Positions 21,555 through 45,709 of a stretch of DNA of 64,000 bases are shown here, piece after piece (position 1 is the first letter of the stretch; every line of letters begins with the position of its first letter). The notes beneath the pieces were generated by a model. It worked only from the letters and a program-made list of their open reading frames with translations. It searched no databases and was not told where the DNA came from. Origin of the DNA: an uncultured delta proteobacterium (GTDB taxonomy: Bacteria; Desulfobacterota; Binatia; DP-6); the NCBI GenBank assembly GCA_963815115.1, contig CAWFFN010000005.1, forward strand, positions 1,376,001 to 1,440,000, written 5' to 3'. Both the position numbers and the translations under genes were made by a program.

Positions 21555-21639
21555 GATAGGAGCGATGAACGGGGTTTTGCGAAGGTTTACGGAACGCCCC
21601 ATCCCAGACCTTCGCCGCATTTTCGCCCGCTCCGTAACA
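21555..21639 (-). repeat. oriIS-like mini-element copy F
   Basis: Full 85-bp unit. Confidence 0.95.
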
Positions 21640-21792
21640 AGTCGCGTCGCTCCTTGGCAGGACCAGCGCAGCGACCACGAGCGCGGTCGCCGTCGCCTCT
21701 TTCCAGGATGGCCATCCCATTCCACTGTTCACAATTGTCATGCCGGCCACGTTGAGGAGGGAACCCGGCGATCGCGACGTGCGGTCGATCCG

Positions 21793-24279: not shown

Positions 24280-24727
24280 TCACGAGCCACCACGAACAGC
24301 GCGCACGTAGTACTGGTTGAAGGTCTTGTCGAAGGGGTTCATGTAGGCGTCCGTACTGTTCACGCCCCACGCTACACTCGGCGAGAGCTCGTAGGTCGCC
24401 GACGACCAGTAGGCGAACTGCTCCGTGCACGAGCAGGTCAGGACGGTGCAGCCCGGCGCGCAGGCCGTGTCGAACGCGGGCGCGATCGACGGGAACAGCG
24501 CGCCGTACACCGTTAGGGTCACCAGCTCGTTGATGTTGGGCAGCCGCCAGTCGGTGAAGCCGGCGAAGCCGCTGCCCCCGTTCAGCGTCGTGATCTTCCC
24601 GAACGCGCCCGCCCACGCATACGTGTCGTCCTTGTCGTGCACGCTGCCGTCATCCGACAACTTCTCCCACATCAACCCGGTCGTCATGTCGGTGATCGTG
24701 CCGTTGCTGTTGTCGACGTAGACGGCC
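24280..24727 (-). pseudogene. DUF1566 (Lcl C-terminal, C-type-lectin fold) fragment, 5'-truncated by copy G
   Basis: DNSNGTITDMTTGLMWEK...DWRLPNINEL...YWSS...AWGV...VRAVRGG*. Confidence 0.85.
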
Positions 24728-24812
24728 GATAGGAGCGATGAACGGGGTTTTGCGAAGATTTACGGAACGCCCCATCCCAGACCTTCGCCGCATTTTCGCC
24801 CGCTCCGTAACA
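24728..24812 (-). repeat. oriIS-like mini-element copy G
   Basis: Full 85-bp unit. Confidence 0.95.
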
Positions 24813-24877
24813 AGGTGAGCTTCTCCCGGGGCGGCATCACGGCCGTCAGCGGGTTCGGGACCCTCGCCGACCTCGGA

Positions 24878-26143
24878 TCACCGCCCTGCCGCCACCAGCG
24901 CAGCGACCGTGAACCAGTCGTCGGTGATCCCGGCCTTCTCGCCCTGGTGGAAGTACCACCCCTGCTCACCCGGGAACCGCGGGCTCGGCAGCGACGCCTT
25001 GGTCGCGTGCTCGAGCTGCAGATCGACCATGACGATGGCCGGCGCGAAGGGCATCTCGTCCTCGTACACGATCGCGTTGCTCCCGGGAACCGACTTCCGG
25101 AAGCTGAGGTCGTTGATCCAGAGCTTCCACAGCTCTCCGGAGCGGTCGTAGATGTCGCTGAACGGGATGCCCCAGTACTCCTTGTCGATGAAGAGCACCC
25201 GCTTGGAGTACGCATACTGGGGCAGCTTCGACGTGCCCTCGATGACGTACACCTTGCGCTTCTCCCACACGTCGTCGAAGGCCCAGTCGACCTTGGAGTG
25301 CCACTTCACCGGGAAGTGTTCTGCGTGTACCGCACCCAGGACCTCCTTCTCACCGAGGTACTTCCAGTCCATCCAGGAGACTTGCCCGGCGTAGCCGTAG
25401 TAGCTGTCGACGTCGGTGTCCTGGCCGAAGAGCGCGTCGGAGCGCTGCGCCGTCGAGAGCCGCCGCACGCGCCGCAATGACGGCAGGTAGAGCCAGGAGT
25501 CGTCCTGCTTGCCGGTGTCTACGTAGCGGTTGCCGAGCGCGCCCACCCCCTTCAGGTCGAAGGGTTCGAGGATCGGATACAGCCCCTGCTGCACCCGGTA
25601 GCCGTTCGGGTTCGGCTTCTCGGGCTTGGGATCGACGTAGAGTCGGGCGGTCCAGAACAGGCGGCGCAGATGATCGAGCAGGAAGTGACGCTCGACCGTC
25701 ATCGGGCCGTTCTGCGGGATCGTGCCCGTGTCGGCGTCGAAGTTGCGCAGGTCGGTGTCGTCAAGCCCGTTCGCGAACCCGTACTCGTAGTTCCACATGA
25801 TCTTGAGGGCGAACTGCGGGTCCTTGGGATCGAGGTTCGGGAACGGCTGGCCGGCGACATAGTTGCTCACGGTGAGGCCGTCCGCCGACAGCTTCACCTG
25901 CGGCGCGTACTTCTCGGTGGCCTCCTTGTACGCCTTCGGCCACTCGACCCGCTTGGTCTCCCCGACCGTGATCGGGAATCCACGCTTGATGCACCACTCG
26001 AGGCCCGGCGAGATCAGGTCTTTTGCCTTCGCCACGTTCGTCCCGTCGATCTTGTCGCCGGGGACAACGTCGGCATGCACGCTCGCGGCGAGCGCCGACA
26101 GGACCAGTGCGATTGCGGCATACCAGGAACGACCCATGTTCAT
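24878..26143 (-). CDS. DUF1329 family periplasmic protein
   Basis: Signal peptide; GQPFP...KIMWN, DDSWLYLPSLRRVRR, YAYSKRVLFID, YDRSGELWK. Confidence 0.9.
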   Translation of the reverse strand: MNMGRSWYAAIALVLSALAASVHADVVPGDKIDGTNVAKAKDLISPGLEWCIKRGFPITVGETKRVEWPKAYKEATEKYAPQVKLSADGLTVSNYVAGQPFPNLDPKDPQFALKIMWNYEYGFANGLDDTDLRNFDADTGTIPQNGPMTVERHFLLDHLRRLFWTARLYVDPKPEKPNPNGYRVQQGLYPILEPFDLKGVGALGNRYVDTGKQDDSWLYLPSLRRVRRLSTAQRSDALFGQDTDVDSYYGYAGQVSWMDWKYLGEKEVLGAVHAEHFPVKWHSKVDWAFDDVWEKRKVYVIEGTSKLPQYAYSKRVLFIDKEYWGIPFSDIYDRSGELWKLWINDLSFRKSVPGSNAIVYEDEMPFAPAIVMVDLQLEHATKASLPSPRFPGEQGWYFHQGEKAGITDDWFTVAALVAAGR

Positions 26144-26433
26144 CGGCTCTCTCCTTTGGCCTTCCCTCGCCGACGCGGCGATGAGCGGAAGGTCGGCGAT
26201 CGACCCGTGACGTCCTCGACGGTCGCCGCCCGTTTGTCGATTGTCTCGGGCGGAACTTCGCGGAGGCCTCTCTGGGTCATCCTCCATTCATTCGCGCATC
26301 CCACCTCTTCTTCGGGCACTTGCGGAGCAACGATCATGCCCTCCGCCTTCCCCTGGGAGTACACCCGGGAACGCGGCAACCCAGCCGCATCGGTCGGAAT
26401 GAAACGGCCGTCTTTTCCCAACCCCGCGAAGCC

Positions 26434-26518
26434 GATAGGAGCGATGAACGGGGTTTTGCGAAGGTTTACGGAACGCCCCATCCCGGACCTTCGCCGCATT
26501 TTCGCCCGCTCCGTAACA
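26434..26518 (-). repeat. oriIS-like mini-element copy H
   Basis: Full 85-bp unit. Confidence 0.95.
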
Positions 26519-26850
26519 AGTGCAAGTTAAGCATGCGTAAACGTAGGGAATAGACGTAGCATCTTGTAGACCTCACCGCATATCCTGAACGGTCTGGCTT
26601 CTCGCCATGCGGATGATGGGAGTGCCGTTCTGGTCCGGCCAGCGTCAGGTAGATGTTGGTCCCGCTCATCTTCTTGATGCCCTGGGCCTGCAGCTGCTCC
26701 ATGGCCTGTTCACGCTTCGCATAAGTCCAGCCGTTGAGCGGTCGCCGTGCTCCCCGGCGGGAACGTCCTTCGGTGTGGAGCGACCTCCTTGTTTCAGGGC
26801 TCGCCGGTAAAGGACATTATGGTCTTGCCCCGTCCGGGCGAACACCTGAG

Positions 26851-27732
26851 TTAAGCCGCTGCGCGGCGATTCCAGTATCGGTCCTCGTAGTCGACGGGGC
26901 TCATCATGTCGATGGCTGAGTGCCGACGCTGGCGGTTGTAGACGGCTTCGATCCAGTGAACGGTCGCCGTCCGTGTGCGAGCCCGGGTCGGCCATGACCG
27001 GGGCTCGATGAGCTCGAGCTTGTAGGTCGCGAAGAAGGACTCGGCGAGGGCGTTGTCCCAGCAGACGCCGGTCTTTCCCATTGACTGTTTCACGCCGTGC
27101 GCATCGCACAGTGCCCGGAACTCGGCCGAGGTGTATTGGCTTCCCCTGTCCGAGTGGAAGATGACACCCTCAACGTTTCCGCTGCGCGTAGCGACGGCCA
27201 TCATCAACGCATCGCACACGAGCGATGCGCGCAAGTGACCGGCGAGGGAGAATCCGATCACGCGACGCGAGAAGACGTCGATGACCGTCGCCAGGTACAG
27301 CCAGCCCTCCCACGTGCGGATGTAGGTGATGTCGCCGACCCACAGCATGTCGGGGGACGGCGCTTCGAACTTCCCATGCACGAGATCGGGGATCGCCGGC
27401 GGTGTCGGTTCCGGTGTCGTCGTACGGACCCAGCGCGGTGGGCGACGACCTCGCAGGCCCGCTGCCTTCATCAACCGCGCTACGCGCTTGCGGCCGACCT
27501 CGTGGCCCTGGGCCTGCAACTCAGCCAGCACGCGGGGCACGCCGTATTGGCCGTCCGACGCCGCATGGATCGCCTTGATCTTCGCCAGCAGTGCCGCATC
27601 GTCTCGTTCACGCTGCGACGGCGGCCCGTCCTGCCACTCGTAGTAGGCGGTGCGGGAGACCTGGGCGATCCGGCAAAGCTGCGTCACCGAATACCGACGA
27701 CTCTCCGCCTCGACGAACCGGTACCGGCTCAT
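26851..27732 (-). CDS. IS3 OrfB (DDE transposase)
   Basis: WVGDITYI, FHSDRGSQY, CWDNALAESFF; ATGA overlap with orfA. Confidence 0.95.
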   Translation of the reverse strand: MSRYRFVEAESRRYSVTQLCRIAQVSRTAYYEWQDGPPSQRERDDAALLAKIKAIHAASDGQYGVPRVLAELQAQGHEVGRKRVARLMKAAGLRGRRPPRWVRTTTPEPTPPAIPDLVHGKFEAPSPDMLWVGDITYIRTWEGWLYLATVIDVFSRRVIGFSLAGHLRASLVCDALMMAVATRSGNVEGVIFHSDRGSQYTSAEFRALCDAHGVKQSMGKTGVCWDNALAESFFATYKLELIEPRSWPTRARTRTATVHWIEAVYNRQRRHSAIDMMSPVDYEDRYWNRRAAA

Positions 27733-28046
27733 CGGGTCTCCATCGCGAAGAAAGCCGCCGCCCGCTTCAAGATGTCCCGCTCGTCGCGGAGCACCCGCAC
27801 CTCGCGCCGCAACCGCCGCAGCTCCTCGCGCTCCTCGGTCGTCAGCCCCTCCCGTTCGCCCGCGTCGACCGCCACCTGCTCGACCCAGCGGCGCACCGCC
27901 GTCTCGCTCAGGTCCATCTCCCGACAAATCGTCGGGATCGTCCGGTCACCCTGTCGCACCAAGGCGACGACCTCGGCCTTGAACGAACTCGTGAACGATC
28001 GCCGTGGGCGGCGACTCGCTCCCTTGCCCTCCACCTTCTTCCGCAT
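27729..28046 (-). CDS. IS3 OrfA
   Basis: RRSFTSSFKAEVV...ELRRLRRE...ERDILKRAAAFF. Confidence 0.9.
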   Translation of the reverse strand: MRKKVEGKGASRRPRRSFTSSFKAEVVALVRQGDRTIPTICREMDLSETAVRRWVEQVAVDAGEREGLTTEEREELRRLRREVRVLRDERDILKRAAAFFAMETR

Positions 28047-28161
28047 CCGAACACCCTCCTCGTGGGCTCACGCCCACATCTGGGGTGTTCGCCGGTCGGG
28101 GGCAAGTCCATTATCATGCATGAAAGAGACGGGTTTTTGTGGAAGGGGGGTCGGAAGTTTT

Positions 28162-28491
28162 ATGGTGGATCAGGGAACGCTAATGGACGGCGGCGGCGGG
28201 CGCGCGGTGTGGGAAGTTGCGGTTGTCGAGAGGCCGCGCAGCCGCGCGGCGGAAGTTCTGGCCAGTGTGCCGGCGATCATTGCCGGCGCCGGCGAGAAAG
28301 CGGCGTGGCGGTTCCTGGAGTTCTTCACGGCGAACATCCGGAACAAGAATACCCGCCGGGCCTATGCGCACGCCGTACGGCTGTTCTGCGCCTGGCTTGG
28401 CGAGCGCGGCATCAGCGACCTGGCTGCCGTCAACCCGGTGCTGGTGGCGGCCTATGTCGAGCATCTCGGCCGCGAGCTCTCCAAGCCCTCT
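28162..28491 (+). pseudogene. Tyrosine recombinase N-terminal (SAM-like) fragment, truncated by copy I
   Basis: AGEKAAWRFLEFFTANIRNKNTRRAY...VAAYVEHL...KPS| followed by the repeat. Confidence 0.8.
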
Positions 28492-28579
28492 TGTTACGGA
28501 GCGTGCGAAAATGCGGCGAAGGTCCGGGATGGGGCGTTCTGTAAGCCTCCGCGGCAAAAGGCCCTTCGTCGTGCCTATC
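28492..28579 (+). repeat. oriIS-like mini-element copy I (88-bp subtype, opposite orientation)
   Basis: TGTTACGGAGCGTGCGAAAATG...TTCGTCGTGCCTATC|AGCT. Confidence 0.95.
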
Positions 28580-28888
28580 AGCTCCATCGCATGCCCAGGC
28601 CTTCGCCGGCCTGAGCGACACGGAGCGCTGGCAGGTCGTCGGTCACGTCCGCGCCATCAGCCTGGGCGGGGCGGGAACGCCCCCAGGCCCCCGCCGGCCC
28701 TAGGCCGCGGACGGCAGTGCTCGATCCGGGCTGCCCGGGGGCCGTCCCGGCGTCGAGCCCCGTTGATCTTTGGGAAAGAGCTACCAGCAGAGGACTATCT
28801 GCCTTGACAGCAGGAGCTCACGGACGGTAGCACCCCATCAGCTACCTTCAGTTTGCTAAGAATCTCAACAATCACCAGGGGGTGGTCA

Positions 28889-31637
<2,749 letters not shown>

Positions 31638-31659
31638 GCCGCTAGCGCGAGGAGGAGAG

Positions 31660-34600
31660 ATGCAGGGGCGTGCGACTCGCGGGATGCTCCTGGCGACGGC
31701 GATCGCCGTCACCCTGTCCGCGAGCGCTCATGCTGCTCCCTGCGACACGCCGGCGAACCCCATCGTGGCGGAGAACTGCCTCCCGGGCGACTCGCCGGAT
31801 ACCTGGGACGTGAGCGGCGCGGGCGATCCGAGCATCCAGGGATTCGCCACCGACATCAGCGTCAACCGCGGTCAGACCGTGCTCTTCAAGATCGACACGG
31901 ACTCGACCAGCTACCGCCTGGACATCTATCGCATTGGCTACTACGGCGGCATGGGCGCCCGCAGGGTTGCCACCGTCCAGCCCACCGCCTCTCTGCCCCA
32001 GAACCAACCCGCCTGCCTGACGGACCCGTCCACCGGCCTGGTCGACTGCGGCAATTGGGCGGTCTCGGCGTCGTGGAACGTGCCGACGAACGCGACGTCG
32101 GGCATCTACTTCGCGTTGCTCGTGCGCGAGGACGCCACGCCGGGGGCGAGCCACGTCGTCTTCGTCGTGCGCGACGACAACGGCGGTTCGGATCTGTTCT
32201 TCCAGACCTCCGACACCACCTGGCAGGCCTACAACCAGTACGGCGGGAACAGCCTCTACGTCGGCTCGCCCGCGGGGCGCGCCTTCAAGGTGAGCTACAA
32301 TCGCCCGTTCACCACACGCGGGCCGACGCCGGAAGACTGGGTGTTCAACGCCGAGTACCCCATGGTCCGCTGGCTCGAGGCCAACGGCTACGACGTGAGC
32401 TACACCACCGGAGTGGACACGGCGCGGAGAGGTGCGGAGCTCCTCGAGCACCGCGTGTTCCTGTCGGTCGGCCACGACGAGTACTGGTCCGGCGATCAAC
32501 GGGCCAACGTCGAGGCGGCGCGTGATGCTGGCCTCCATCTCGCCTTCTTCAGCGGCAACGAGGTGTTCTGGAAGACGCGGTGGGAGAACAGCGTCGACGG
32601 CTCGTCCACGCCGTATCGCACGCTGGTCACCTACAAGGAGACGCACGCCAACGCGAAGATCGATCCGCTCCCGAACGTGTGGACGGGCACGTGGCGCGAT
32701 CCGCGCTTCAGCCCGCCGGCCGACGGCGGGCGGCCCGAGAACGGCCTCACCGGCACGATCTTCACCGTCAACTGCTGCTCGGACGCGATCACGGTTCCGT
32801 CGGCCGACGGCCGCATGCGGTTCTGGCGCAACACCACCGTGGCGTCGCTCGGCCCCGGGCAGACCGCTACGCTCCCTCCCGAGACGCTCGGCTACGAGTG
32901 GGACGAGGATCTCGACAACGGCGTGCGTCCCCCGGGCCTGGTGCGTCTCTCGACCACCACCCTCACGGAGCCGCAGCGCCTGCTCGACTTCGGCTCGAAC
33001 TACGGCACCGGGACGGCGACCCATCGTCTGGTTTTGCACAGGCAGCCGAACGGCGCGCTCGTGTTCGGCGCCGGCACCGTGCAGTGGTCCTGGGGGCTCG
33101 ATGACAATCACGACCGCGGCAGTGCACCGCCCGACGTCCGCATGCAGCAGGCGACGGTCAATCTCCTGGCCGACATGGGCGTGCAGCCCGCCACGCGACA
33201 GCCTGGCCTGGTCGCGGCCACCGCGTCGACCGACGGTTCCCCCCCGTCTGCGGCGATAACGTCTCCGGCCGACGGCGCGGTGGTCGCGAGTGGCGGCACG
33301 GTCGCGATCAGCGGCACTGCCGCCGACGGGGGCGGCGGCGTGGTGGGCGGCGTCGAGGTCTCCGTCGACGGCGGTACGACCTGGCATCCCGCCAGCGGGC
33401 GGGCGGCGTGGAGCTACTCGTGGACGGTGCCGGTACAATCGGGCTCCATCACGCTCCTGGCGCGCGCCGTGGACGACAGCGGCAACCTGGGTGCGCCCGG
33501 CGCGCCGGTCACGGTGACGACGGGCGGCTTCCAGGACCCGAACCAGGGTCCGGGCGGACCGATCCTGGTCATCACGCGACCCGCCGATCCCTTCGGTCGG
33601 TACTACGCCGAGATCCTGCGCGCCGAGGGCCTGCAGGCGTTCGCCGTGGCGGACATCGCGAGCGTGTCGGCATCGACGCTCGCGGGCTACGACGTCGTCG
33701 TGCTGGCCTCGATGCCGCTCAACGCGGCTCAGGTGTCCATGCTGACCAGCTGGGTGACGGCGGGCGGGAACCTCATCGCGATGCGCCCTGACGCCCAGCT
33801 CGCTTCGCTGCTCGGCCTCACTGCGGCCGGCAGTCCGCTGTCCAATGCGTATCTCCTGGTCAACACGGCCGCAGGTCCGGGAGCCGGCATCGTCGGTCAG
33901 ACGATCCAGTTCCACGGCGCCGCCGACCGCTACACGACGAGCGGTGCCACCGCCGTCGCCACGCTGTACGCGAACGCGTCCAGCGCCACCGCCAACCCGG
34001 CCGTGACGCTCCGGAGCGTCGGGACGATGGGTGGTCAGGCGGCGGCGTTCACGTATGATCTCGCGCGCTCCGTCGTCTACACGCGGCAGGGCAATCCGGC
34101 ATGGGCGGGTCAGGAGCGGGACGGCACGCCGCCGCGCCGGTCCGACGACCTGTTCTTCGGGAATGCCGCGGGCGATCCGCAGCCCGACTGGGTCGACCTC
34201 GGCAAGGTCGCCATCCCGCAGGCCGACGAACAGCAACGGCTGCTCGCGAACCTGATCCTCCAGATGAACCTGGACCGCAAACCCTTGCCACGCTTCTGGT
34301 ACCTCCCGCGCGGGCTCCAGGCGGCCGTCCTGATGAGCGGTGACGACCACGGCAACGGCGGGACCGCCGGGCGGTTCGACGGCTACATCGCCGACAGCCC
34401 GCCGGGGTGCTCCGTGCCCGACTGGGAATGCGTCCGCAGCACCTCGTACGTCTATCCCGGCACGCCGAACCTGGACAACGCGGTGGGCTACAGCGCGGAG
34501 GGATTCGAGATCAGCATCCACGTGCTCACCAATTGCGAGGACTGGACCCCGGCGTCGCTGGACGCCTTCTTCGACAACCAGCTCGACGCGCTGGAGTCAC

Positions 34601-37077
34601 AGCTCGAGGGCCTCCCCCCGCCCGCGAGCGAGCGCAATCACTGCATCGCGTGGAGCGACTGGGCGACGCAGCCCAAGGTCGAGAACGCGCACGGCATGCG
34701 GCTCGACACCAACTACTACTACTGGCCGCCGGACTGGGTGCAGGATCGGCCGGGGCTGTTCACCGGGTCCGGCATGCCCATGCGCTTTGCCGACGTCGAC
34801 GGCACGATGATCGATGTCTACCAGGCCGTCACCCAGATGACCGACGAATCGGGGCAGACGTTCCCGTTCACGATCGACACCCTGCTCGACCGTGCCCTCG
34901 GCCCGGAGGGCTACTACGGCGTCTTCACGGCCAACATGCACACCGACAGCGAGGCGTCGGACGGCTCCGACGCCATCGTCGCCTCCGCGCAGGCGCGCGG
35001 CGTGCCGATCGTGTCGGGACGCCAGATGCTCGAATGGCTCGACGGGCGCAACGGCGCCGCCTTCGGCTCGATCTCGTGGAGCGTCGACACCCTGCGGTTC
35101 ACGGTCGGCGTGGCGGCGGGCGTGAACGGCCTGCAGGCGATGCTGCCGACGCACTCCGCGCGCGGCGTGCTCGGCACGATCACGCTCGGCGGGAGTCCCG
35201 TCGCCTTCACCCCGCGCACGATCAAAGGCATCGAGTACGCGTTCTTCCCCGCCGCCGCCGGCCAGTACGTCGCCCGCTACCCCGTGCCCGGCGACACCGA
35301 CGGCGACGGATGGGCGCCGCCCGCGGACTGCAACGATCACAACGCAGCGATGTTCCCCGGCGCGCCGGAGCTGTGCGACGGCCTCGACAACGACTGCAAC
35401 GGCACGGCCGACGATCCCTTCCCCGACGTCGGCGCCGCCTGCACGGTGGGTGTCGGAGCGTGCGCGGCCACCGGCCTCCGCGTCTGTACCGGCGAGGGGA
35501 CGAGCACCGTCTGCAACGCGATCCCGGGCACGCCCACGACCGAGCGTTGCGACGGGATCGACAACGACTGCGACGGGCAGGTGGACGAGGCGTTCACCGA
35601 TCTGAACACCGCGTGCACGGTGGGGGTGGGCGACTGCTCCAGGACCGGCGTGAAGGTCTGTCTCGGCAACGGATCGGGCACCACGTGCAGCGTGACGCCG
35701 GGAACGCCCACGACCGAGGTCTGCGACGGACACGACAACGACTGCGACGGTCAGATCGACGACTCGCCATCCGATGCCGGCCAGCCCTGTAACACCGGCC
35801 AGCTCGGCACCTGCGCGGCCGGCACCCGCCAGTGCCAGGGCGGCGCGTTGCAGTGCGTGCGCAACACGGGTCCTTCGGGGGAACGCTGCAACGGCCTGGA
35901 CGATGACTGCGACGGCAGCGTCGACGAGACCTTCGCCGACCTCGGTGGCACGTGCAGCGTCGGTATCGGCGACTGCGCGCGAACCGGCGTGAAGGTGTGT
36001 CTCGGCGACGGCTCGGGCACCACCTGCGGTGCGACCCCGGGAGCACCCGCAACCGAGATCTGCGACGGGCACGACAACGACTGCGACGGTCAGATCGACG
36101 ATGGGAATCCGGGGGGCGGCGGGAGCTGCACCACCGGCCAGCAGGGCGTGTGCTCGGCGGGCACGATGCAGTGCCAGAGCGGTGGGCTGGTGTGCGTCCG
36201 CAACGTCAACCCGACCTCGGAGACCTGCAACGGCGTCGACGACAACTGTAACGGTGCGGTCGACGAGGGAACCGGTGGTGGAAGCTGCACGACGGGACTG
36301 CCCGGCGTGTGTGCGGAGGGAACCCGCCAGTGTCAGGGGGGAACCCTGCTGTGCGTCGCGAATGCGGCAGTCCCCGAGATCTGTGACGGGCAGGACAACG
36401 ACTGCGACGGCGCGATCGACGAAGGCAATCCAGGTGGCGGCGCCGCCTGCACCACCGGTGAATCGGGCGTCTGCGCCGCGGGGACGATGCGCTGCGAGGA
36501 GGGAACGCTGACCTGCGTGCGCGACGTGGAGCCATCGGGCGAGCTCTGCGGCACCGGCCTCGACGAGGACTGCAACGGACAGACCGACGAGCCGGGCTGC
36601 ATCGATTGTCTCCCGGCCGACAGCGTGACGGCGCCCACCCAGACGCTGAAGACGTCGGTCAAGCTGTCGCCCACGGCCGCTCGCGACAGCGCCCAGACCA
36701 AGGGCAGCTTCCGGCTGCCGTCGGGTCTGACGCTGGCGCCGGACGGACAGGACGTGATGCTGCGGCTCACGGACGGCACCGGAACGACCTACTACTCGGG
36801 CACGATCCCCGCCGGCAGCTTCGTCGCGTCCAGCAGCCGGCGCAGCTTCAAGTTCAACGACCGGACCATGGCGCACGCGGGTGTCCGCGCGAGCAAGTTC
36901 ACCGTCGCGGGGGACGGCACGCTCGTCAAGTACAGCTTCAAGATGAAGGGGCTCGACGAGCCGCCGTTCATCGCTGGCACGGGCACGGCACTCATCAAGA
37001 TCGGCCCGCGCTGCTTCGCGGACCCGTCGGATGCGTGCACCCTCTCCGGCTCGGGCCGGGCGGCGCGCTGCAAGTGA
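31660..37077 (+). CDS. Large secreted protein: N,N-dimethylformamidase beta-like domain, Ig-like domain, deacetylase-like domain, PF11617-type repeats
   Basis: GGAGG RBS; TTWQAYNQYGGNSLY, VSYNRP, SVGHDEYWS, FFSGNEVFWK; CDGxDNDCDG repeats. Confidence 0.85.
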   Translation: MQGRATRGMLLATAIAVTLSASAHAAPCDTPANPIVAENCLPGDSPDTWDVSGAGDPSIQGFATDISVNRGQTVLFKIDTDSTSYRLDIYRIGYYGGMGARRVATVQPTASLPQNQPACLTDPSTGLVDCGNWAVSASWNVPTNATSGIYFALLVREDATPGASHVVFVVRDDNGGSDLFFQTSDTTWQAYNQYGGNSLYVGSPAGRAFKVSYNRPFTTRGPTPEDWVFNAEYPMVRWLEANGYDVSYTTGVDTARRGAELLEHRVFLSVGHDEYWSGDQRANVEAARDAGLHLAFFSGNEVFWKTRWENSVDGSSTPYRTLVTYKETHANAKIDPLPNVWTGTWRDPRFSPPADGGRPENGLTGTIFTVNCCSDAITVPSADGRMRFWRNTTVASLGPGQTATLPPETLGYEWDEDLDNGVRPPGLVRLSTTTLTEPQRLLDFGSNYGTGTATHRLVLHRQPNGALVFGAGTVQWSWGLDDNHDRGSAPPDVRMQQATVNLLADMGVQPATRQPGLVAATASTDGSPPSAAITSPADGAVVASGGTVAISGTAADGGGGVVGGVEVSVDGGTTWHPASGRAAWSYSWTVPVQSGSITLLARAVDDSGNLGAPGAPVTVTTGGFQDPNQGPGGPILVITRPADPFGRYYAEILRAEGLQAFAVADIASVSASTLAGYDVVVLASMPLNAAQVSMLTSWVTAGGNLIAMRPDAQLASLLGLTAAGSPLSNAYLLVNTAAGPGAGIVGQTIQFHGAADRYTTSGATAVATLYANASSATANPAVTLRSVGTMGGQAAAFTYDLARSVVYTRQGNPAWAGQERDGTPPRRSDDLFFGNAAGDPQPDWVDLGKVAIPQADEQQRLLANLILQMNLDRKPLPRFWYLPRGLQAAVLMSGDDHGNGGTAGRFDGYIADSPPGCSVPDWECVRSTSYVYPGTPNLDNAVGYSAEGFEISIHVLTNCEDWTPASLDAFFDNQLDALESQLEGLPPPASERNHCIAWSDWATQPKVENAHGMRLDTNYYYWPPDWVQDRPGLFTGSGMPMRFADVDGTMIDVYQAVTQMTDESGQTFPFTIDTLLDRALGPEGYYGVFTANMHTDSEASDGSDAIVASAQARGVPIVSGRQMLEWLDGRNGAAFGSISWSVDTLRFTVGVAAGVNGLQAMLPTHSARGVLGTITLGGSPVAFTPRTIKGIEYAFFPAAAGQYVARYPVPGDTDGDGWAPPADCNDHNAAMFPGAPELCDGLDNDCNGTADDPFPDVGAACTVGVGACAATGLRVCTGEGTSTVCNAIPGTPTTERCDGIDNDCDGQVDEAFTDLNTACTVGVGDCSRTGVKVCLGNGSGTTCSVTPGTPTTEVCDGHDNDCDGQIDDSPSDAGQPCNTGQLGTCAAGTRQCQGGALQCVRNTGPSGERCNGLDDDCDGSVDETFADLGGTCSVGIGDCARTGVKVCLGDGSGTTCGATPGAPATEICDGHDNDCDGQIDDGNPGGGGSCTTGQQGVCSAGTMQCQSGGLVCVRNVNPTSETCNGVDDNCNGAVDEGTGGGSCTTGLPGVCAEGTRQCQGGTLLCVANAAVPEICDGQDNDCDGAIDEGNPGGGAACTTGESGVCAAGTMRCEEGTLTCVRDVEPSGELCGTGLDEDCNGQTDEPGCIDCLPADSVTAPTQTLKTSVKLSPTAARDSAQTKGSFRLPSGLTLAPDGQDVMLRLTDGTGTTYYSGTIPAGSFVASSSRRSFKFNDRTMAHAGVRASKFTVAGDGTLVKYSFKMKGLDEPPFIAGTGTALIKIGPRCFADPSDACTLSGSGRAARCK

Positions 37078-37096
37078 TCTAGCCGGCGCGACGGCG

Positions 37097-37860
37097 CTAC
37101 AGCTCCCACTCGACGGGGAACATCGGATCGGGCCGGTAGGCACAGAAGAGTCCGGTCTGCACGGCGCGGTCGAGGTGACGGCCGAGGACGGGGCACCCGG
37201 CCTCGATCCTGCGCACGACCTTGCGCACTGCCCGGGTGACGTTCAGCCGTGCCCGCTCGGCGTCCGAACCTGCCTTGCGGGCGCGTCCGCCCAGGCCGGT
37301 CGCGCGATTGAGCTCGTCGGCGAGCATCTCCATCTCCTCGCGCAGCCGGGCGGCACGTCCGATGTCGTTGAACTCCTGCGCCTCCTGCAGCTCGCCCTGG
37401 AGCTCGCCGAGCCGCGCCTTGTAGGCGCGGCGGGCGTCGGCGTCGAGCATCTCGCCGGAATCGCCGGCGTGCAGGTCCTCGGCGCCTCCGAGGTCGAGGG
37501 CATGAAATTCGTGGCCCGGGTTGCGGAAGGAACTCGAGGAGGTACGCGACGCCCTTCATGTCCTTGAGGCGCGTGAGCTCGTCGTCGCAGGTGACCCTCC
37601 ACACGTCGCCTTCGTGACGCAGGCTGGCGATGCGTGGCGCACCGACGGCTGGGGCGAGCGCCACCGCGACGGCCGCCGGTGTCCGCGACGCCGCCTCGTC
37701 TGCCGCCAGCCGCTCCTGCAGGGCGACGAGCTCGAGCCGCGCCGCCGTGGCGGCCGCTTCCGCGCTCAGCGTGGCGGCGCGCTCCCGATCGCCGCGCTTC
37801 CCGCGCGCGCGCAAGCTGCGCGCCAGCTCGTGCTGGGTGTAGTGAGCGGGTCCGGATCGG
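37097..37860 (-). pseudogene. C-terminal fragment of an ATPase/TPR-type regulator, frameshifted
   Basis: LRHEGDVW...KGVAYL / LDADARRAYKARL...ERARLNVTRA...HLDRAVQTGLFCAY. Confidence 0.65.
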
Positions 37861-37947
37861 GTCAAGCGCACGGCGCCCGCACCCGACGTCCTTTTCCACT
37901 TCACGCGCGCAATGGATCCGTGGTAGGCGGGAGCGGGGGGAACGCCA

Positions 37948-40785
37948 GTGTTGCGATTCGCAGCTCTTGGCTCGCTCGTCGTCGCCCTCACTGGGTCGCC
38001 GGTCCGTGCCACCACCGCTCAGGATCTCTGCGGCAACCCCGTTCCCGATCCCTGCCGGATCACGACGTACCGCGCGGTGGCGCCCGGATCTGTTCTCGAC
38101 TTTCGCCCCGGCGCTCTCATCCTCGCGGCGAATGGAATCCTCGACGCCGGCGCTGGTCAGATGGGGATCGTCGCCCGCGCCGTGACGCTCGGGTCCGGAT
38201 CCCGGCTGCTCGCGGCCGGCGGCCGGGTCAGCGTCCTCGCGGAAGATCGCATCACGGTCGACGCTGCGGCCAGGATCGACGTCTCGGCCACGGGCGGCGG
38301 CGGGGCGATCGTGCTGTTCGCGCTCGCCGACGTCCTGATCGACGGCGCGCTGCGCGCGAGGGGGGTCGGGATACCCGCGTTCGGCGGATCGATCTTCGTC
38401 GCGGCCGACGCCGCGGTCCGCCTCGACGACGTGGACGCCAGCGGTGGCTCCCAGGCGTATCCGATCACAGATCGGGCGAGCGTCCGCGTCGTGGCCGGCG
38501 GCCGTGTGGATCTGAACGGCCTCGTCGACGCCTCGCACGGCGAGTGCCTGACCTGCTCGATCGACGTCAAGGCGGGCGGCGACCTCACCGCGCAGAAGCT
38601 GGACGTGCACGCGACGGGCCCGTCGGGCAACGGCGGCTCGATCACGGTCGAGAGCGAGGGCTCGATCAGGCTGAACGGTGATCTCGCTGCGCCCGGGGGC
38701 GGCGGCGACCCGGATTTCGGCGGTGGCGGCGGTGAGGTCGAGGTGACCGCGCACGACGACCTCGCGGTGAACGGCTCGATCCTCCTCGGGGGCACGGCGC
38801 CCGACGGCGATGGCGGCACGTTCGACCTGCAGGCGGGCGGTGACCTCCGGATCGCCACCTCGTCCGTGCTCGACACGGAAGGCGGTGGTGAAGGCTGCGG
38901 TGGCTCCCCCAGCTCGCTCGACGCGGGGCGCGATCTCACCATCGGACGGATCAAGGCGGGCGGCGACTCCTGCGGCGGAGGATCACTCGACGCGTCGGCC
39001 GGGCGCGACGTGACGGTGCTGGGTCGGGTCACCGCGGGCGCCAACGCGGACGGCTCCGGGGGAGACGTGACGATCACCGCGGCGCGCGCGGCGGACATCC
39101 GTGCCGACCTCGACGCCAGTGGGGCGGCGGCCGGGAGCGGGGGCTCGGTCCTGGTCGAGGGTTGTACGGTGAGCATCCTGGCCGGCGTCGTGATCCAGAC
39201 GAACGGCTCCGACGGCGGCAACACGCTGCTCGCCCATGGCCTGATGACGGTCGCGGGGCGTCTCGAAGCGGGCGGCGCGAACGTCCTCGCCTTCGGCAAC
39301 CCCGCCAGCCCGCCGATCATCACCGGAGCGGTCGTCCCCCCGACGACCCCGAGACTCGATCCGACTCTGACCCCCTGCGCCGGACTGGCCGCGTGCGGCG
39401 ATGGGACGCGCGACGCATCCGAGGAATGCGACGACGGCAACACGGAGTCCTGCGACGGATGCTCGGCCAGCTGCCAGGTCGAGCTCTGCGGCAACGGCCG
39501 GCTGGACTGCGGCGAGGTGTGCGATCCACCGGACCTCGAGCACTGCGACGCCGCCTGCCAGGTGCTGCCCCAGGCCATCGTCACGCTTCCCGGCGCGCCT
39601 CGTCGAAACGGCTGCGAGCTCGAGTGGAAGGTGGAGCTCGGCGATCCGACCCTGGACTCGCATGGCCTCCCGAAGACGACCCAGAGCTGCATCGACGGGG
39701 ATACCGCCTGTGACGCCGACGCCGCCAACGATGGCCGCTGCACGATCCGGACACGCGTCTGCCTGCGCGCCCGCGACCCGCGACTTCCCGACTGTGCGCC
39801 GGGCGCGATCGACAGCGTCAAGATGAAGTCCCCGTTGCCTCTGAATTCCGACGACCCGACCGACGTCGCCAACGCGAACGTCCTGCGCGATGCGCTGAGC
39901 GCTCTGGGCGTGACCGTGAAGCAGGGGACCACGGTCCTGCACGCCGGCGTTCCGGATCCCCAGCTCGATCACTGCACCCCGCCGCTCTCGCTGGTCGTGC
40001 CGCATGGCGCGAGGAAGGAGCGCCGCCGCTTCGACCTCGGCGCCCAGGACGTCGACGGCCACGTCATGACCGGCAACCCGCTGAGGCTCGACTGTGCCCC
40101 GAGCACCGCGGTGTGCGGAGACGGCGTCGTCGGCACGGGCGAGAACTGCGACGATGGCAACACGCAGGGGTGCGACGGCTGCTCGCCGACCTGCCATGCG
40201 GAGGCGTGCGGCAACGGCGTCATCGACTGCAACGAGCAGTGCGACGCCGGCATGCCGAACCCGCCGCCCGCGACCGGCTGCACGGCGGCCTGCACGGAGA
40301 CCCCGCCCGCACTGCGCATCCCGGGTGGCGGCGGCCGCCCGGTCGACTGCGCCCAGGAATGGGCGCTGGTCCTCGACGCGAGCGAGACCGCGGTCGACGG
40401 ACGGGGCGTTCCGAAGACCACCCAGGAGTGCGTCGACGACGATCCCCGGTGCGACTTCGACGCGACGTCCGGTACCTGTCGCCTGCACGTCTTCTCGTGC
40501 CTGGGAGGCGCTGATGTCCGGCTGGGATGCCCGGCTGCCACCGTCGCCAGCGTCGACGTGGTGCAGCCGCGCGTTTCGGACGGCGGCACGGTTCGCGATG
40601 CGCTGATCGGTGCCCTGAGCGAGCTGCACCTCCCGGTGGGTCCCGGAGAAGCGTGTACGCGGCGGGTCGACGTCGACGTGCCGGCGGGGAGGAAGGGCGC
40701 CGTGCTCAAGCTGAGCGCCGCCCTGGCCAGCGGGAAACCAGACCGCGACAAGCTGAAGGTCCGCTGCCTTCCCGCCGCCCCGTGA
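37948..40785 (+). CDS. Secreted protein with Gly-rich beta-helix-like region and DUF4215 (myxobacterial Cys-rich) repeats
   Basis: Signal-like start; GxGG-I repeats; CGDG..EECDDGN..DGCS motifs. Confidence 0.8.
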   Translation: MLRFAALGSLVVALTGSPVRATTAQDLCGNPVPDPCRITTYRAVAPGSVLDFRPGALILAANGILDAGAGQMGIVARAVTLGSGSRLLAAGGRVSVLAEDRITVDAAARIDVSATGGGGAIVLFALADVLIDGALRARGVGIPAFGGSIFVAADAAVRLDDVDASGGSQAYPITDRASVRVVAGGRVDLNGLVDASHGECLTCSIDVKAGGDLTAQKLDVHATGPSGNGGSITVESEGSIRLNGDLAAPGGGGDPDFGGGGGEVEVTAHDDLAVNGSILLGGTAPDGDGGTFDLQAGGDLRIATSSVLDTEGGGEGCGGSPSSLDAGRDLTIGRIKAGGDSCGGGSLDASAGRDVTVLGRVTAGANADGSGGDVTITAARAADIRADLDASGAAAGSGGSVLVEGCTVSILAGVVIQTNGSDGGNTLLAHGLMTVAGRLEAGGANVLAFGNPASPPIITGAVVPPTTPRLDPTLTPCAGLAACGDGTRDASEECDDGNTESCDGCSASCQVELCGNGRLDCGEVCDPPDLEHCDAACQVLPQAIVTLPGAPRRNGCELEWKVELGDPTLDSHGLPKTTQSCIDGDTACDADAANDGRCTIRTRVCLRARDPRLPDCAPGAIDSVKMKSPLPLNSDDPTDVANANVLRDALSALGVTVKQGTTVLHAGVPDPQLDHCTPPLSLVVPHGARKERRRFDLGAQDVDGHVMTGNPLRLDCAPSTAVCGDGVVGTGENCDDGNTQGCDGCSPTCHAEACGNGVIDCNEQCDAGMPNPPPATGCTAACTETPPALRIPGGGGRPVDCAQEWALVLDASETAVDGRGVPKTTQECVDDDPRCDFDATSGTCRLHVFSCLGGADVRLGCPAATVASVDVVQPRVSDGGTVRDALIGALSELHLPVGPGEACTRRVDVDVPAGRKGAVLKLSAALASGKPDRDKLKVRCLPAAP

Positions 40786-40794
40786 CGGCGGTGC

Positions 40795-42265
40795 TCAGCC
40801 GCGCGCGGCCGCGGCTTCGCCGCCGACGCCGAGGGCGCGGTGCAGCAGACCAATCAGGTGAGGCCGCATGCGCCCCGCAGGTACGACGGCGTCGAGCGAG
40901 CCGACACGCCGCGCGCGTTCGACCGAGTGGACGGCGTCGAACTCGTCGGCGATCCGTCGCTGCGCCGCCAGGACCGCGTCGTCCATTGCACGCTGCAGCG
41001 CCGCCCGCGCCTCTCCGCTCGGATGCGGGCCGAGCGCACCGCGGAGGCGTTGCACGGTCGGGTCGGCGGCGGCCCGTGCCCGCACCTCGCGCGTGAGCAC
41101 GACGGCCGCGGCCGGCGCTCCTCCGATCACCGAAGCGTAGGAGCCCTCCAGCGCCGAGGCGTCGAGCGCCGGGTTCAGCGCCCTGGAGAATACGACGTAC
41201 GCGTCGCCGTGATAGCGCGAGACCACCAGGAAGCAGATCGGACCCTCGAACTCGACCACCGCGCGGGCGATCTCGGCGCCGTGCTCGAGCTGGAGGTTCC
41301 GCATCGACTCCGGTGAGCCGTCGAAGCCGGAGAGGTTGGCGAGCACGACGGCTGGCCGGTTGCCGCTCGCCGCCCCGAGCGCGCGCGCCACCTTCTTCGA
41401 GGACAGCGGGAAGAGCGTGCCGCCGGTCCACGCCGCCGGGCCATCCGACGGCCGATACCCCTCGCGGAGCACGGGCCGGCTTTCGATGCCGATCAGGCAT
41501 ACCGGGATCCCGCCGACATGCGCATCCCAGACGATGGCAGTCTCGGCGTTCGCCCACCGGCGCCAGCGCTCGAGCCAGTCGCCGTCCTGATCGATGAGGG
41601 CCTGCATGACGGCCCGCATCGCGAACGGTCGCTTGCGGCCGGCATTGGTGCGCTCGTCGAAGATGCTGCCGACGGTGGCGAAGCCGTCGTCGGAGTCGCT
41701 CACATAGGGATAGTCGCGGACGTCGCGGTCGAACGGATCGTCTGTGAGGTGCGAGCGGGGACGACGTTCGCCGGGTGCGACGTAGGTGAAGCGATAGTGT
41801 GCGTACAGGGTACGATAGGCGCCCAGCAGGTCGGGCGCGTCGTACTGCCCTTCGCCGTTGAGCCCCATCACCCGCTCATAGCCGCCGATCGCCACCTCGT
41901 CCTCCGCCGCGACGCTGCCCGAGGCCTCGAGCGCGGCCCGGCCCGTGAGAACCATCGAGGCCCCGGGCGTCATCACGAGCGCGCCGCGCGTGTGCATGAG
42001 CATCGTGGCGAGCGCATTCCAGTAGCTCTGTGCGCCCACGTTCACCCCCGACACCAGCACATGGATGACGCCGCCCCGGCGCGTGAAGGAGACGATTCGC
42101 CGCACGACACGGGCGGTCGCATCGAGATTCTCGGTTCCGCTGTCCATGGCGATGCGGGCGCCGCTCGAGATTGGCACCCACTCCAGCGGCACCCCGCGTG
42201 CCTCGGCGAGATCGATGGCGGCCACGATGCGATCGCATTCGGCACCGCCGAGCGCACCCATCTCC
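40795..42265 (-). pseudogene. C-terminal carboxyltransferase part of a large acyl-CoA carboxylase, 5'-truncated by copy J
   Basis: SSGARIAMDSGTEN, NVGAQSYWNA, LANLSGFDGSPES, ASVIGGAPAAAVV; begins at the repeat end. Confidence 0.85.
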
Positions 42266-42353
42266 TGTTACGGAGCGTGCGAAAATGCGGCGAAGGTCCG
42301 GGATGGGGCGTTCTGTAAGCCTCCGCGGCAAAAGGCCCTTCGTCGTGCCTATC
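42266..42353 (+). repeat. oriIS-like mini-element copy J (identical to copy I)
   Basis: Same 88-bp sequence followed by AGCTCC. Confidence 0.95.
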
Positions 42354-42993
42354 AGCTCCCCGCCGGACACGTCCTGGTGCTCGACGGCATCGCCTGGGGC
42401 GCCAGCGCTGGGATGCCGGGACGCCTGATCGGCATCCTCGTCGACATCAACGGCGATTTCACCAACGCACCCTGGAACGACAGCGCCATCGCCGACTCCG
42501 TCGGAGACGTCGCACACGACGTGTTCATCCCGAACATCCCAATCAAGAGCGGCGTGACACCGTGCCTGCACAGCGGCGGCACGATCACGCGCGGCATCGT
42601 TCACGGCTTCCTCACCAACGACAGATAGCTTCTTCATCCAGCGGGCCGCCCGGCGCACCCGCGTCGGGCGGCGCCATCTCGCCTCTGCACGATCCGCTGG
42701 GAATTGTGAGATAAACCGATCCGGGGCCATCTGCGGAACAGCGGTGTTCGGCTCCGGCTTCAGCGCGACGCAGAATGCCTTTCGCTACGACGGATCGGGG
42801 CTTCCGGTCGACCTCGGCCCTAAGGAAATGGGTTACGACGTGTCCCAGTGCACCGGCCGCGCCGGGTCGGGACGGTAGACGCAGAAGTACCCGCGCCGCA
42901 CCGTCGCCGTCAGATGCCGGCCGAGCTCGGGATGACTCGCCGCGATCCGCTCGAGCGCGCCCTTGAGGCCCTTCGTCACCGCCACCCGAGGCC

Positions 42994-43078
42994 GATAGGA
43001 GCGATGAACGGGGTTTTGCGAAGGTTTACGGAACGCCCCATCTCGGACGTTCGCCGCGTGTTCGCCTGCTCCGTAACA
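42994..43078 (-). repeat. oriIS end of the IS91/ISCR element (copy K)
   Basis: Downstream of the transposase on the same strand; ends CCCGTTCATCGCTCCTATC, similar to IS91/ISCR oriIS. Confidence 0.85.
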
Positions 43079-43229
43079 ACGCAGCGCACAATCGGTGGGC
43101 CGGGGTGGCCGCAGGGGTCCTCCCGTGGGGCCGGGGCCGCCGTCGGGAACCCGACTGGGCGGTGGTCAGTCGCCAGACATCGCCGGGCGGACACACCCCG
43201 GGCGTCGGCGCGGGCACCGGTGGACGGGC

Positions 43230-44912
43230 TCAGCTCCAGTCGAACAGGTCGGACGGCGCCGGCCGGAGCGCTGACGCCTCGGTCGGGAGCCCGAGGTGGG
43301 TGAGAATCCTCCGGATGACGACGGGGTCCTCGATGGTGGCCACGACGCGCATGCGGCCGCCACACCGGAGCACAAGCCAACACGTCCACCCCGAACGTAT
43401 GCCGCATCAGCTCCGGCCACGACCACTTGCGCGACGCCGGCGGTGGGGGCGCCTCCACGCTCACGGTGGTGGCCGGGTCTCGACTCGTCACCGGCGCCGG
43501 AGCCGACAGCGGGTTCGCTCTGGTGTCCGCCGAGCGTCACGACGGGATCGCGGTGCGCCGCAACACTCACCTCCAGTCCGCCGTCGGACGGCGGTGCGTT
43601 CGATGGAACGGGCGGAGTTGCCGACCCGCACGCGACCGCAGCGTTGCGACCGACGGGGGCGAGGGTGTCCCGCCCGTAGGCGACCGCCCGGGCGCGCCAC
43701 CGACTGTGCGGCGCTAACACACCATGGTATAGAACGAGGTTGATCGCGCGGGCGCGGCGTGAGCGCCGCCAGCCGTTCGAGCAACTCGATCGGTTCGAAC
43801 AAGAGGTGCGTGGTGCCGTCGCTCCATTCCGCCTTCAAGGTGAGGAGCACGCGGCCATCGGCGGTGCGGCTCAACCGTTCCTGCGCGATCGGCGGCCGCA
43901 GGACGTAGCGCGCGAGCTGTTCCAGCCCGTCGCGGTTGTTCGCCGCGACGGCGACGTTGGCGTGGAGATCGAAGCCGTCCAGGTGGGCCTGGCGGGTGCC
44001 GGTGGTGGTCACCCAGGGCGCGCCCGGCACGCGGCCGAGCTGCAGCACCCGCGCCCCGGCCCGCGGCCCGAGGGCGCTGCGGCCCTGGACCGCCGCACTC
44101 GTGATGCCGGCGAGCGCGAGGGACGTCTCGGCCAGGGGATCGCGCGCGTCGTCGTCTTCGGCCTCCACGAACACCCCGCGCCGCCGCAGCAGGCGCAGGA
44201 CGCGGGTGCGGATGGTGGCGACGAGCCGGGCGACCTCGGCATCGGTCGGCGCCGGGGCCGGGTGGAAGCGCAGCGTGCCGTCGGCGGCTTCCGTGAACAC
44301 GCCGTCGAGGAACAACGCGTGGCTGTGCACGTTGAGCTGGAGGCCCGAGCCAAAGCGTTGGATCACCGTCACCGAGCCGGAGTCGCCGTCGATCCCCCCG
44401 GCGCGCCGCGCCCGCCGACGATACCAGCCGAGCACGGCCCGCAGGAACACCCCGATGACGGCCCGACAGAGTGCGTGGTCGAAGGCGAGCCGGTAGCGCA
44501 GCCGGTGGGGGACGGTGAGCACCCATTGCCGGACCGGGACCCAGGGCAGGATCGCCTGGACGAGATTCGCCGCCTGCTCCGCCATGCGCCGCCCGCCGCA
44601 ACTGGCGCAGACCGCGCGGCCTTTGCAGGACAGCGGCAGGAGGCGCTCGAACGCACAGTCGTCGCACCGGACCCGCAAAAAGCCATGGACGAGCAGCCCG
44701 CAGCGGAGGAAGCCGCGGAGCTCGCGCTCGATGAAGCGGGGCAGGCCGACCCCGTCGGTGCGGGCGGCGGCCGCGGCGAGGAAGGTCTCCAGATGCTCCT
44801 GGACCACCCCGTGCAGGACCGTGTCGGCGGCGGCGCGCGGAGCGTAGGGAGCCACGGCGCGGGGCCCAGCGGCTTCCGTGCCGTGCGGCAACGCCTCGCT
44901 GCAGGACGCCAA
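43230..44912 (-). pseudogene. IS91/ISCR-family rolling-circle (HUH Y2) transposase with frameshifts
   Basis: Zn-finger CG..HGF..C..C...SCKGRAVCASCG; QWVLTVP; QRFGSGLQLNVHSH; GFDLHA; ARYVLRPP; LYHGVLAP; C-terminal ...IRRILTHLGLP. Confidence 0.9.
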
Positions 44913-45179
44913 GACGAGCTGGCACTGGGCACCGAGGCGGCGGGGTCAACACCCGGCGCAACCGCGCGTTACACTGCCGGCCATCGGTCGGCTCGCTACG
45001 ATCTGCTACGACCGCGTGCGCGGGCCAGGCTCGATGATCAAGTCCTCGGGGAGGTCGTCGTCCTGGGGGTGTGGGTTGCGGAGGGTGACCGCCCAGCGCC
45101 GGATCGGCTTGCATCAGCGCCGCGATGCCCGTCGGAGGCCGAAGCCGGAAGTGCCACTCGTCCCGAGGGAACACCGCGG

Positions 45180-45360
45180 TCCGCGCGACGAGCGCGTCCG
45201 CGACGAGCGTGGCCATATCGTCATGCCCCCCGGGCGCATGGTCGATGCTGTCTCGGTCGCTGCGGCTGGTCCGGCCTTCGAGCCCGATGAGCCGAGTGGC
45301 CAGCCAAGACACCTCGAGCAACTCGGCCCGACCGGCTTTCACGAGCGGGAGAAAGTCGAG
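45180..45360 (-). pseudogene. Phage terminase large subunit C-terminal fragment
   Basis: FLPLVKAGRAELL...LIGLEGRTSRSDRDSIDHAPGGHDDMA. Confidence 0.6.
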
Positions 45361-45709
45361 GTTAGCGGTCGCTCTTCCACCGCTCAGCGATGAACGACGC
45401 CGTGCGCGAGTTACTGCGTGCCCTGGCCCTCCCGGCTCAAGAGCAAATACATTACTGATGAGGCTTGCGAAGTGAGAGGAAGGCATGCTTGAAGGTCGGC
45501 AGGAAGCAGCGATGGATGCGTTTGCGCTGACGGATGGGTGGCCCGGATCACCACGCCGCGCGGGGGCGTCGGCGGATACCTGTGTGATCACGAGGTGAGG
45601 AAGGTAGCCGCGGCAACCCAACCCCGCCCCCTGCGCGCTCCCTCCGGGTCGTTCCCTCCGCCATGGGGCGACAGCTGGTGAGAACACCAGAGCAAACGGA
45701 GGACGCGCC

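Follow-up and report, generated by a model that had tools for sequence, protein, structure and literature searches.

The locus described here bears on how ISCR elements acquire and stack neighbouring genes. The window, that is, the whole stretch of 64,000 nucleotides that was analysed, is part of contig C5 of a 6.9-Mb assembly of 12 contigs, and carries a rolling-circle transposase gene together with dispersed copies of a short repeat. A sequence-only reading had proposed that the copy downstream of the gene, here called copy K, is the ori end of this transposase, and that the repeat is thereby tied to a specific enzyme. The question is how the copies relate to the gene, and how unrelated DNA came to lie between them.

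An ISCR-Type Transposase Gene with Three Frameshifts

The gene at 43230–44855 (minus strand) encodes an ISCR-type (IS91-family) HUH rolling-circle transposase of about 540 amino acids (with X at the breaks). The open reading frame 43488–44912 (minus strand) matched the Pfam families Y2_Tnp (7.9e-21) and Zn_Tnp_IS91 (6.7e-16), both above cut-off. When its 372-aa N-terminal part was scanned, the best NCBIfam model was ISCR_clade_Ia (7e-85), with a score under the cut-offs of both ISCR_clade_Ia and transpos_IS91. The protein contains a zinc finger, an H-x-H motif, and a single tyrosine in an RY..RP motif at the same position as in ISCR1; residues H177, H179, and Y317 are conserved without exception in 7 sequences, one of them an annotated IS91-family protein. 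A single catalytic tyrosine is the criterion of the ISCR subgroup. Identity is 37% to ISCR1 (522 columns) and 42% to ISVsa3 (397 columns). The start codon is probably the GTG at 44855 rather than position 44912, because homologs align only from about residue 20–23.

The C-terminal piece of the transposase runs through two further frames to the stop at 43230. One extra base each was found near 43745, 43511, and 43369, present as such in the assembly, so that the "two to three" frameshifts first reported are three +1 shifts. The contigs of relatives were free of the extra base at each of these sites (3 of 4 runs per site), and five homologs have open frames of 473–516 codons, the one at L002 being 516 codons long. 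Among 101 core orthologs (36,622 aa), 5 contain a frameshift, a density far below three in 380 bp of the transposase. Indels cluster in this assembly, one IS110 copy having 8 one-base gaps relative to three identical siblings. None of the sequencing runs located proved to be the source of the assembly (best share 0.28). The frameshifts may be real or may be long-read errors; we lean slightly towards real decay, given the many broken mobile genes around the transposase. The gene is the sole Y2_Tnp match in the genome (1 of 10 candidates), the others being short fragments, and no second intact transposase was found among these 10 candidates. The proposal that activity is supplied by a copy elsewhere is thus unsupported in the assembly. 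Since the sole near-complete transposase is frameshifted, either the arrays are fossils or the indels are read errors. Across the class, a Y2_Tnp match was found in 84 of the 201 genomes searched.

Upstream of the transposase lies the 3' tail of an unrelated gene (45000–45090, minus strand), which also stands upstream of the homolog at locus L001, with homology ending at 45084–45090. No terIS was found upstream of the transposase gene, and the 18 homologs inspected by eye had no common boundary there. The L001 homolog, 89% identical, is interrupted near the end of its catalytic domain by a 2.6-kb insertion (L001:11139–13735), is truncated thereafter, and has no comparable end. At 45180–45470, the window contains broken frames that resemble the C-terminus of a phage terminase by eye, with no family match.

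Copy K as the oriIS End of the Transposase

Copy K is an 89-bp end module at 42991–43079 (minus strand), composed of a left motif, a dif-like core, and an ISCR ori end. It closes an oriIS region of 239 bp, from stop codon to element end (42991–43229, minus strand), and its ori end cuts a host gene, whose 3' end remains at 42833–42990 (minus strand) and of which a related genome has intact copies at 93% identity. As first described, K lies about 236 bp past the stop and on the transposase strand: the motif CCTATC ends at 42994, 236 bp past the stop, and the true end is at 42991, 239 bp past it. CCTAT ends 228 bp past the stop in ISCR1, 231 bp in ISVsa3, and 235 bp in K, so the likeness to the IS91/ISCR oriIS motif pointed out in the earlier reading holds against the actual ISCR1 and ISVsa3 records. 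Two ISCR1 records were identical for 232 bases after the stop and diverged beyond; the available part of PMC6218425 gives 232 bp for the oriIS region of ISCR1 and describes variable DNA beyond oriIS in ISCR elements, as is seen here. ISCR1, ISCR2/ISVsa3, and the present element are alike in zinc finger, H-x-H motif, single tyrosine, an oriIS region of 232–239 bp, and the same end.

To this comparison the homologs could be added. From 51 distinct homologous C-terminal tails, 5 with fewer than 300 bases downstream were dropped. Among the remaining 46, CCTAY or GCTAT occurred 185–275 bases past the stop in 23, compared with 6 of 45 control windows further down, and many of the tails lacking the motif are visibly interrupted. 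The whole 85-mer of the earlier reading is restricted to close relatives (3 of 60 other genomes; 3 of 52 loci scored strongly). A different conserved end, which had been named as the outcome that would speak against K, did not appear among the homologs. K's own upstream sequence precedes the module in 3 of 5 metagenome contigs matching the module pattern, and the independent metagenome contig L125 opens on the final bases of this stop region and carries the same kind of module.

At six junctions with an identifiable donor or homolog (one donor being 98.9% identical), the match starts at the second base past CCTATCNG; therefore, the C that follows CCTATCNG is part of the element. A pyrimidine stands next to the element end in 16 of the 18 strong copies described below. 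According to the part of PMC13181058 that was available, the last 82 bp of the right end of IS91 are enough for transposition, which may be set beside the 89 bp of K, and CTTG/GTTC are the targets. For K and the solo modules, no target duplication was seen, and the right flank shares a first pyrimidine rather than CTTG/GTTC. Position, strand, and motif agree with ISCR1 and ISVsa3, the homologs share the end, and L125 concurs. Judged from these sequences, we are nearly certain that K is the oriIS end of the adjoining transposase.

The end of ISCR1 carries outward promoters, whereas no outward sigma-70 promoter or terminator was found in 42800–45300, and Rfam gave no match in window positions 1–48000. 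No attC-like or other hairpin was found in the module, with folding z-scores of -0.7 to +1.0 and no significant fold in 6 of 6 strands. In the fold of K, the left motif is complementary to the XerD-like arm; as a conserved trait this was dropped, being absent by eye from other module families.

Solo Copies of the Module

A profile built from nine window copies gave 27 genome matches, of which 9 strong ones lie in the window and 9 strong ones within a span of 110 kb on C9, the other 9 being weaker; an iterated profile added further weak relatives in the genome. All 18 strong copies have a fixed left start, and a fixed right end where they are intact. Seventeen of them are solo copies of 89–93 bp without a transposase, 15 with the usual end. 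The left ends of the solo modules start with T or C followed by TGT, and the right flanks share only a first pyrimidine. By type, there are 7 copies of type A (including K), 9 of type B, and 1 of type D.

The solo copies of the window on the minus strand are at 333–416 (type A, in which the end of a third IS110-like element takes the place of the ori tip), 13546–13638 (divergent type C), 17806–17894 (type A, its ori end cutting an IS110 fragment), 21552–21640 (type A), 24725–24813 (type A, its ori end cutting an Lcl_C-domain gene), and 26431–26519 (type A). On the plus strand are 28491–28582 (type B), whose left end cuts an integrase gene and whose ori end abuts DNA duplicated from C12, and 42265–42356 (type B), which is inverted relative to K and whose left end cuts a carboxyl-transferase gene. 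In addition, a left half of another family at 20599–20631 (minus strand) ends one base into the spacer past the XerC-like arm, and a right half at 19060–19109 (minus strand) consists of the XerD-like arm and the ori end. The eleven repeat copies counted earlier would correspond to the nine strong copies plus this split copy in two halves. The two type B copies of the window are both oriented opposite to the other copies and bracket 13.7 kb within 26520–42990, with left ends facing at 26519/28491 and ori ends at 42356/42991; this opposite orientation may reflect an inversion.

The gene-linked end also recurs near the transposase at other loci as solo or partial copies, which are mostly 50–110 bp long, co-oriented, and downstream of the gene; such copies were found at L004, L074, L109, L172, L174, L175, L176, L180, L183, L184, and L188. 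Since they occur at these 11 other loci, the layout is general in the class. Fixed left boundaries with different left motifs were found in other families at L074, L172, L176, L180, L183, and L184. The module pattern had 0 matches in viral contigs. Further ISCR end-module families, with dif-like cores and left motifs of their own, were seen at C8:220300–234100, C9:1121000–1123600, C9:1783800–1789800, C5:235480, and C5:373231, and no transposase matching the families at these sites was found in the assembly. At L126 and L127, a longer mini extends about 57 bp beyond the module into K's upstream sequence before unrelated DNA begins, and there may accordingly be a second internal left end. At L109 (about +2770 and +4280 from the stop) and at L092 in a related genome, another insertion sequence apparently splits or truncates modules before or within the left part.

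Every solo type A copy differs from K at the same five positions, all within the first 37 bases, with 0 or 1 difference in the right half. Because the five left-half differences are shared by all of them, the solo copies are, on their sequences, derived from a sister element and not from K as it stands. The proposed tie between repeat and enzyme consequently stands at the level of the family, while descent of the solo copies from K itself does not.

A precedent for such copies exists in IS801, whose right-end minis of 229, 360, and 679 nt arise by one-ended transposition with upstream DNA carried along (PMC3189936, in the part available). The likeness extends to transposase-less right-end fragments, fixed left ends, mobilisation in trans, and upstream capture (same part of PMC3189936). 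In contrast to the IS801 minis, the modules here are shorter, number at least 18 in rows in two islands, contain a dif-like core, and have chimeric halves, and no tetranucleotide is common to left end and target. They also differ from ISCR1 and ISVsa3 in that most ends are solo modules with a dif-like core. We consider it quite probable that the solo copies are minis mobilised in trans by the transposase family.

Host DNA between the Modules

Several stretches between modules are duplicates of chromosomal DNA from the same genome. Flanked by modules on both sides, the 1.6-kb passenger at 24816–26430 (minus strand) is 94% identical to C7:228686–230300, of which it is a duplicate, and contains a whole DUF1329 gene (24878–26143). 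From the left end of the last module onward, the segment 418–1484 duplicates C12:573442–574507 at 96% identity and carries a ParE/Phd toxin-antitoxin pair. In the block 28583–40792, the pieces 28583–28676, 37097–37840, and 37838–40792 are about 90% identical to C12:805681–812783, interrupted by 8.4 kb of other DNA; within this interruption, 31684–37077 and 30144–31637 encode a large secreted-type protein with DMFA2_C, Big_7, and MopE repeats, probably as frameshifted pieces. Of the 18 window junctions, 4 fall where a duplicated chromosomal segment ends, a count reached in 10 of 20,000 random sets. The donor regions checked contained no modules.

The passengers are arbitrary stretches, often cut genes, and the genes cut at junctions include the integrase, carboxyl-transferase, and Lcl_C genes, an IS110, and the gene after K. 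Their sequence divergence of 4–10% suggests either a sister population as donor or an old capture. When left and right flanks were searched for side by side in one donor, as a simple insertion would leave them, none of the 18 copies gave such a case; flanks that are never side by side are expected if the copies are recombinants, and simple insertion is likewise unproven. No circle or empty target site was seen in the assembly or in contigs of other samples. Other mobile DNA of the window includes an IS3-family element at 26820–28110, 100% identical to two C8 copies and thus recently active, and a Mutator-family (IS256-like) transposase in three pieces at 1708–2891. A small cysteine-rich ORF at 5587–5874 has a 93-bp tandem duplication and weak Pfam matches only.

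A dif Look-Alike in the Module and Chimeric Halves

The core of K is a dif-like 11-6-11 site at 43023–43050 (minus strand), in which 15 of 22 arm positions are identical to the host dif on C7. The host dif is the only good match to the XerD-arm motif with a XerC-like partner, and it is located where both the GC skew and the KOPS orientation of C7 invert. The next-best score, 15/22, occurred at 8 of 13.8 million positions, namely 6 clear modules (including K), 1 probable module, and 1 unrelated site. With a spacer of 6 or 7 allowed, scores of at least 14/22 (maximum 18) were found downstream of 20 of 46 homologs compared with 6 of 831 random control windows, which makes the look-alike a trait of the clade. 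The ends of ISCR1, ISVsa3, and L073 scored 11–13/22 against this host's dif and have no core at the corresponding place. No module was found near the chromosomal dif on C7. The genome encodes full-length XerC-like and XerD-like proteins (C5:993552–994403 and C7:761649–762515), with scores slightly below the curated cut-offs.

Xer recombinases cut at the borders of arm and spacer. In types A, B, and D, the left halves are 92–100% identical and the right halves 52–75%, with the switch at the 11-6-11 site. Comparison of 20 distinct module sequences gave 32 pairs with a significant single switch, located in the spacer or the XerD arm in 23 of them; the pairs are not independent, and the parents were chosen by eye. 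Triplet comparisons placed the switches of K (with L128 as parent), type B, and type D within 9–14-bp intervals over the core. Since the left half of K differs at five fixed sites and its right half matches solo type A, K itself is probably a recombinant, with a left half of its own type and a right half identical to that of solo type A.

These switches could be read in two ways. Our preferred reading is that the host recombinases XerC and XerD cross modules over at the dif look-alike; for a catalytic role of Xer in this crossover, the sequence evidence leaves us evenly divided. The strongest rival, which we regard as rather unlikely, though less so than any other, holds that one-ended rolling-circle transposition scatters right-end minis, that RecA-type recombination shuffles the DNA between them, and that the look-alike is an uncut Xer-binding site or a relic. 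It accords with the proposal that IS801 minis serve mainly as recombination homology (PMC3189936, in the part available). It is also favoured by the four-gamete test, which proved unspecific, with incompatibility in 112 of 260 left-right pairs and, at nearly as high a rate, in 16 of 45 left-left pairs. Only 3 of 5 chimeras tested map to the core, L125 switching to the right of it and L074 fitting poorly; the switch point of K shifts left when L126 is taken as parent. The core of K, moreover, is degenerate at 15/22, and the TTAT with which the host XerD arm starts is missing from it. Against RecA stands L176, where 2 of 6 copies combine an identical right half with an unrelated left half, the join lying inside the XerC arm; one further copy there keeps the XerC arm and differs from the spacer onward. 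The retention of the look-alike in 20 of 46 homologs despite diverged surroundings also argues against it, as does the shortness of the substrate, since 89 bp with halves up to 48% different are poorly suited to homologous recombination.

IS110 Elements at the Modules

Besides the IS110-like element at the ori tip of the copy at 333–416, two IS110 elements occupy defined places in the module. A 1481-bp IS110 stands at the left boundary in 4 of the 9 C9 copies and at like motifs on C8 and in L106. IS110 elements follow a bridge-RNA guide logic; in the leader of this element, 7 bases match the target side (13 of 5000 shuffles) and 8 bases match the element's own end. Units of IS110 plus module, nearly identical but differently flanked, occur four times, at C9:341963–343534, 352679–354250, 366037–367600, and 428602–430173, and these units may move as one composite. 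One C9 module is directly followed by such a unit, which is the junction that a circle would give. The second element, 1489 bp long (19110–20598, minus strand), is inserted at the border of XerC arm and spacer, one base into the spacer, and a 99% copy is found at the same module position on C8. Its guide match is weak (6 bases, 92 of 5000 shuffles), and its donor match is not significant. LT/RD junctions are treated in bioRxiv 10.64898/2026.08.14.744561, in the part available.

Such precise targeting raises the alternative that IS110 recombinases, and not the HUH transposase, make the fixed left boundary and move the units, with imprecise excision joining the boundary to new DNA. The element that targets exactly the left boundary and its two leader matches speak for it, but fixed left boundaries also occur in families with other left motifs, 14 of the 18 copies have no IS110 at the left boundary, and the right boundary is the ISCR end in every intact copy, which makes this alternative very improbable. 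That the repeat is an unrelated miniature element with K behind the transposase by chance could appeal to the confinement of the 85-mer to close relatives, but this idea is largely refuted and hardly credible, given the same position and end motif in homologs and ISCR1/ISVsa3 and the three metagenome contigs with K's upstream sequence before the module.

A Working Model and Its Relation to Known Systems

We therefore return to the reading in which the module is an ISCR-type oriIS end with a dif look-alike, its solo copies being spread by the transposase family and arrayed through crossover by host XerC/XerD; as a whole, it seems to us somewhat better supported than not. The HUH transposase would nick at the ori end, copy toward the gene, and usually stop at the internal left end 89–92 bases away, and the released mini-circle would insert elsewhere with little target preference. 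Reading through past the left end would take adjoining host DNA along and yield a circle of passenger plus one module. Crossover in the dif-like core could then insert such a circle into a module already in place, leaving rows of module, passenger, and module as well as copies with halves of different parents, K included. From its sequence, the left end of the module may be a terIS, for which it is a candidate only.

Integron cassette arrays are comparable in that unrelated DNA lies between co-oriented repeats downstream of a recombinase gene. Unlike in integrons, no integrase adjoins the array and the passengers are often gene fragments; none of the 18 tyrosine-recombinase matches of the genome lies in the window, where only a cut N-terminal fragment was found. 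CR-tron, YR-tron, Tng, and tagmoth are names for integron-like IS91 arrays. They did not occur in the literature searched, which may miss such a paper. As far as the available parts of the sources go, Acinetobacter pdif modules and CTX/TLC-type phages likewise have a dif look-alike on mobile DNA and modules between sites. The present site differs from both in that it is embedded in a rolling-circle origin, the copies are mostly co-oriented, none is at the chromosomal dif, and it is the module ends, not the dif-like site, that cut the passengers.

Related features have been reported earlier, each cited here from the part available: insertion sequences that home next to Xer-type sites (PMC10132070), paired oriIS flanking a gene for ISCR28 (PMC12772301), IS91-mediated circles (PMC5737581), and integrase-driven movement of an ISCR2 unit (PMC9376610). 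Transposition has not been demonstrated experimentally for any ISCR element, according to the available parts of PMC6218425 and PMC9376610. Right-end minis and upstream capture were already known from IS801; new are the tie to the one transposase of this genome, the mapping of ends against donors, and the evidence on breakpoints. No publication linking ISCR ends to dif mimics was found at the level of titles and the beginnings of abstracts, in a search that leaves many journals uncovered.

The widest form of the model, which we put forward tentatively and with rather more doubt than belief, is a two-enzyme capture system. An ISCR-type HUH transposase would cut arbitrary DNA into module-tagged circles, and XerC/XerD would stack these at a dif mimic in a growing array with the transposase gene at its head. 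Such a system would handle cassettes with neither integrase nor attC, would be widespread within a single uncultured class, and would be hit by RNA-guided IS110 elements at three places of the module.

As loose copies flank duplicated host DNA, the bacterium likely collected this DNA by means of the transposase together with the host Xer recombinases. For the acquisition and stacking of genes by ISCR elements, the locus offers an 89-bp minimal substrate whose two ends are placed to within a base or two, donor segments identifiable elsewhere in its own genome, and chimeras suggestive of a crossover site. Without the Xer step, the locus would be an ordinary ISCR end with minis; if Xer does complete the process, rolling-circle transposition would be linked to chromosome-dimer resolution.
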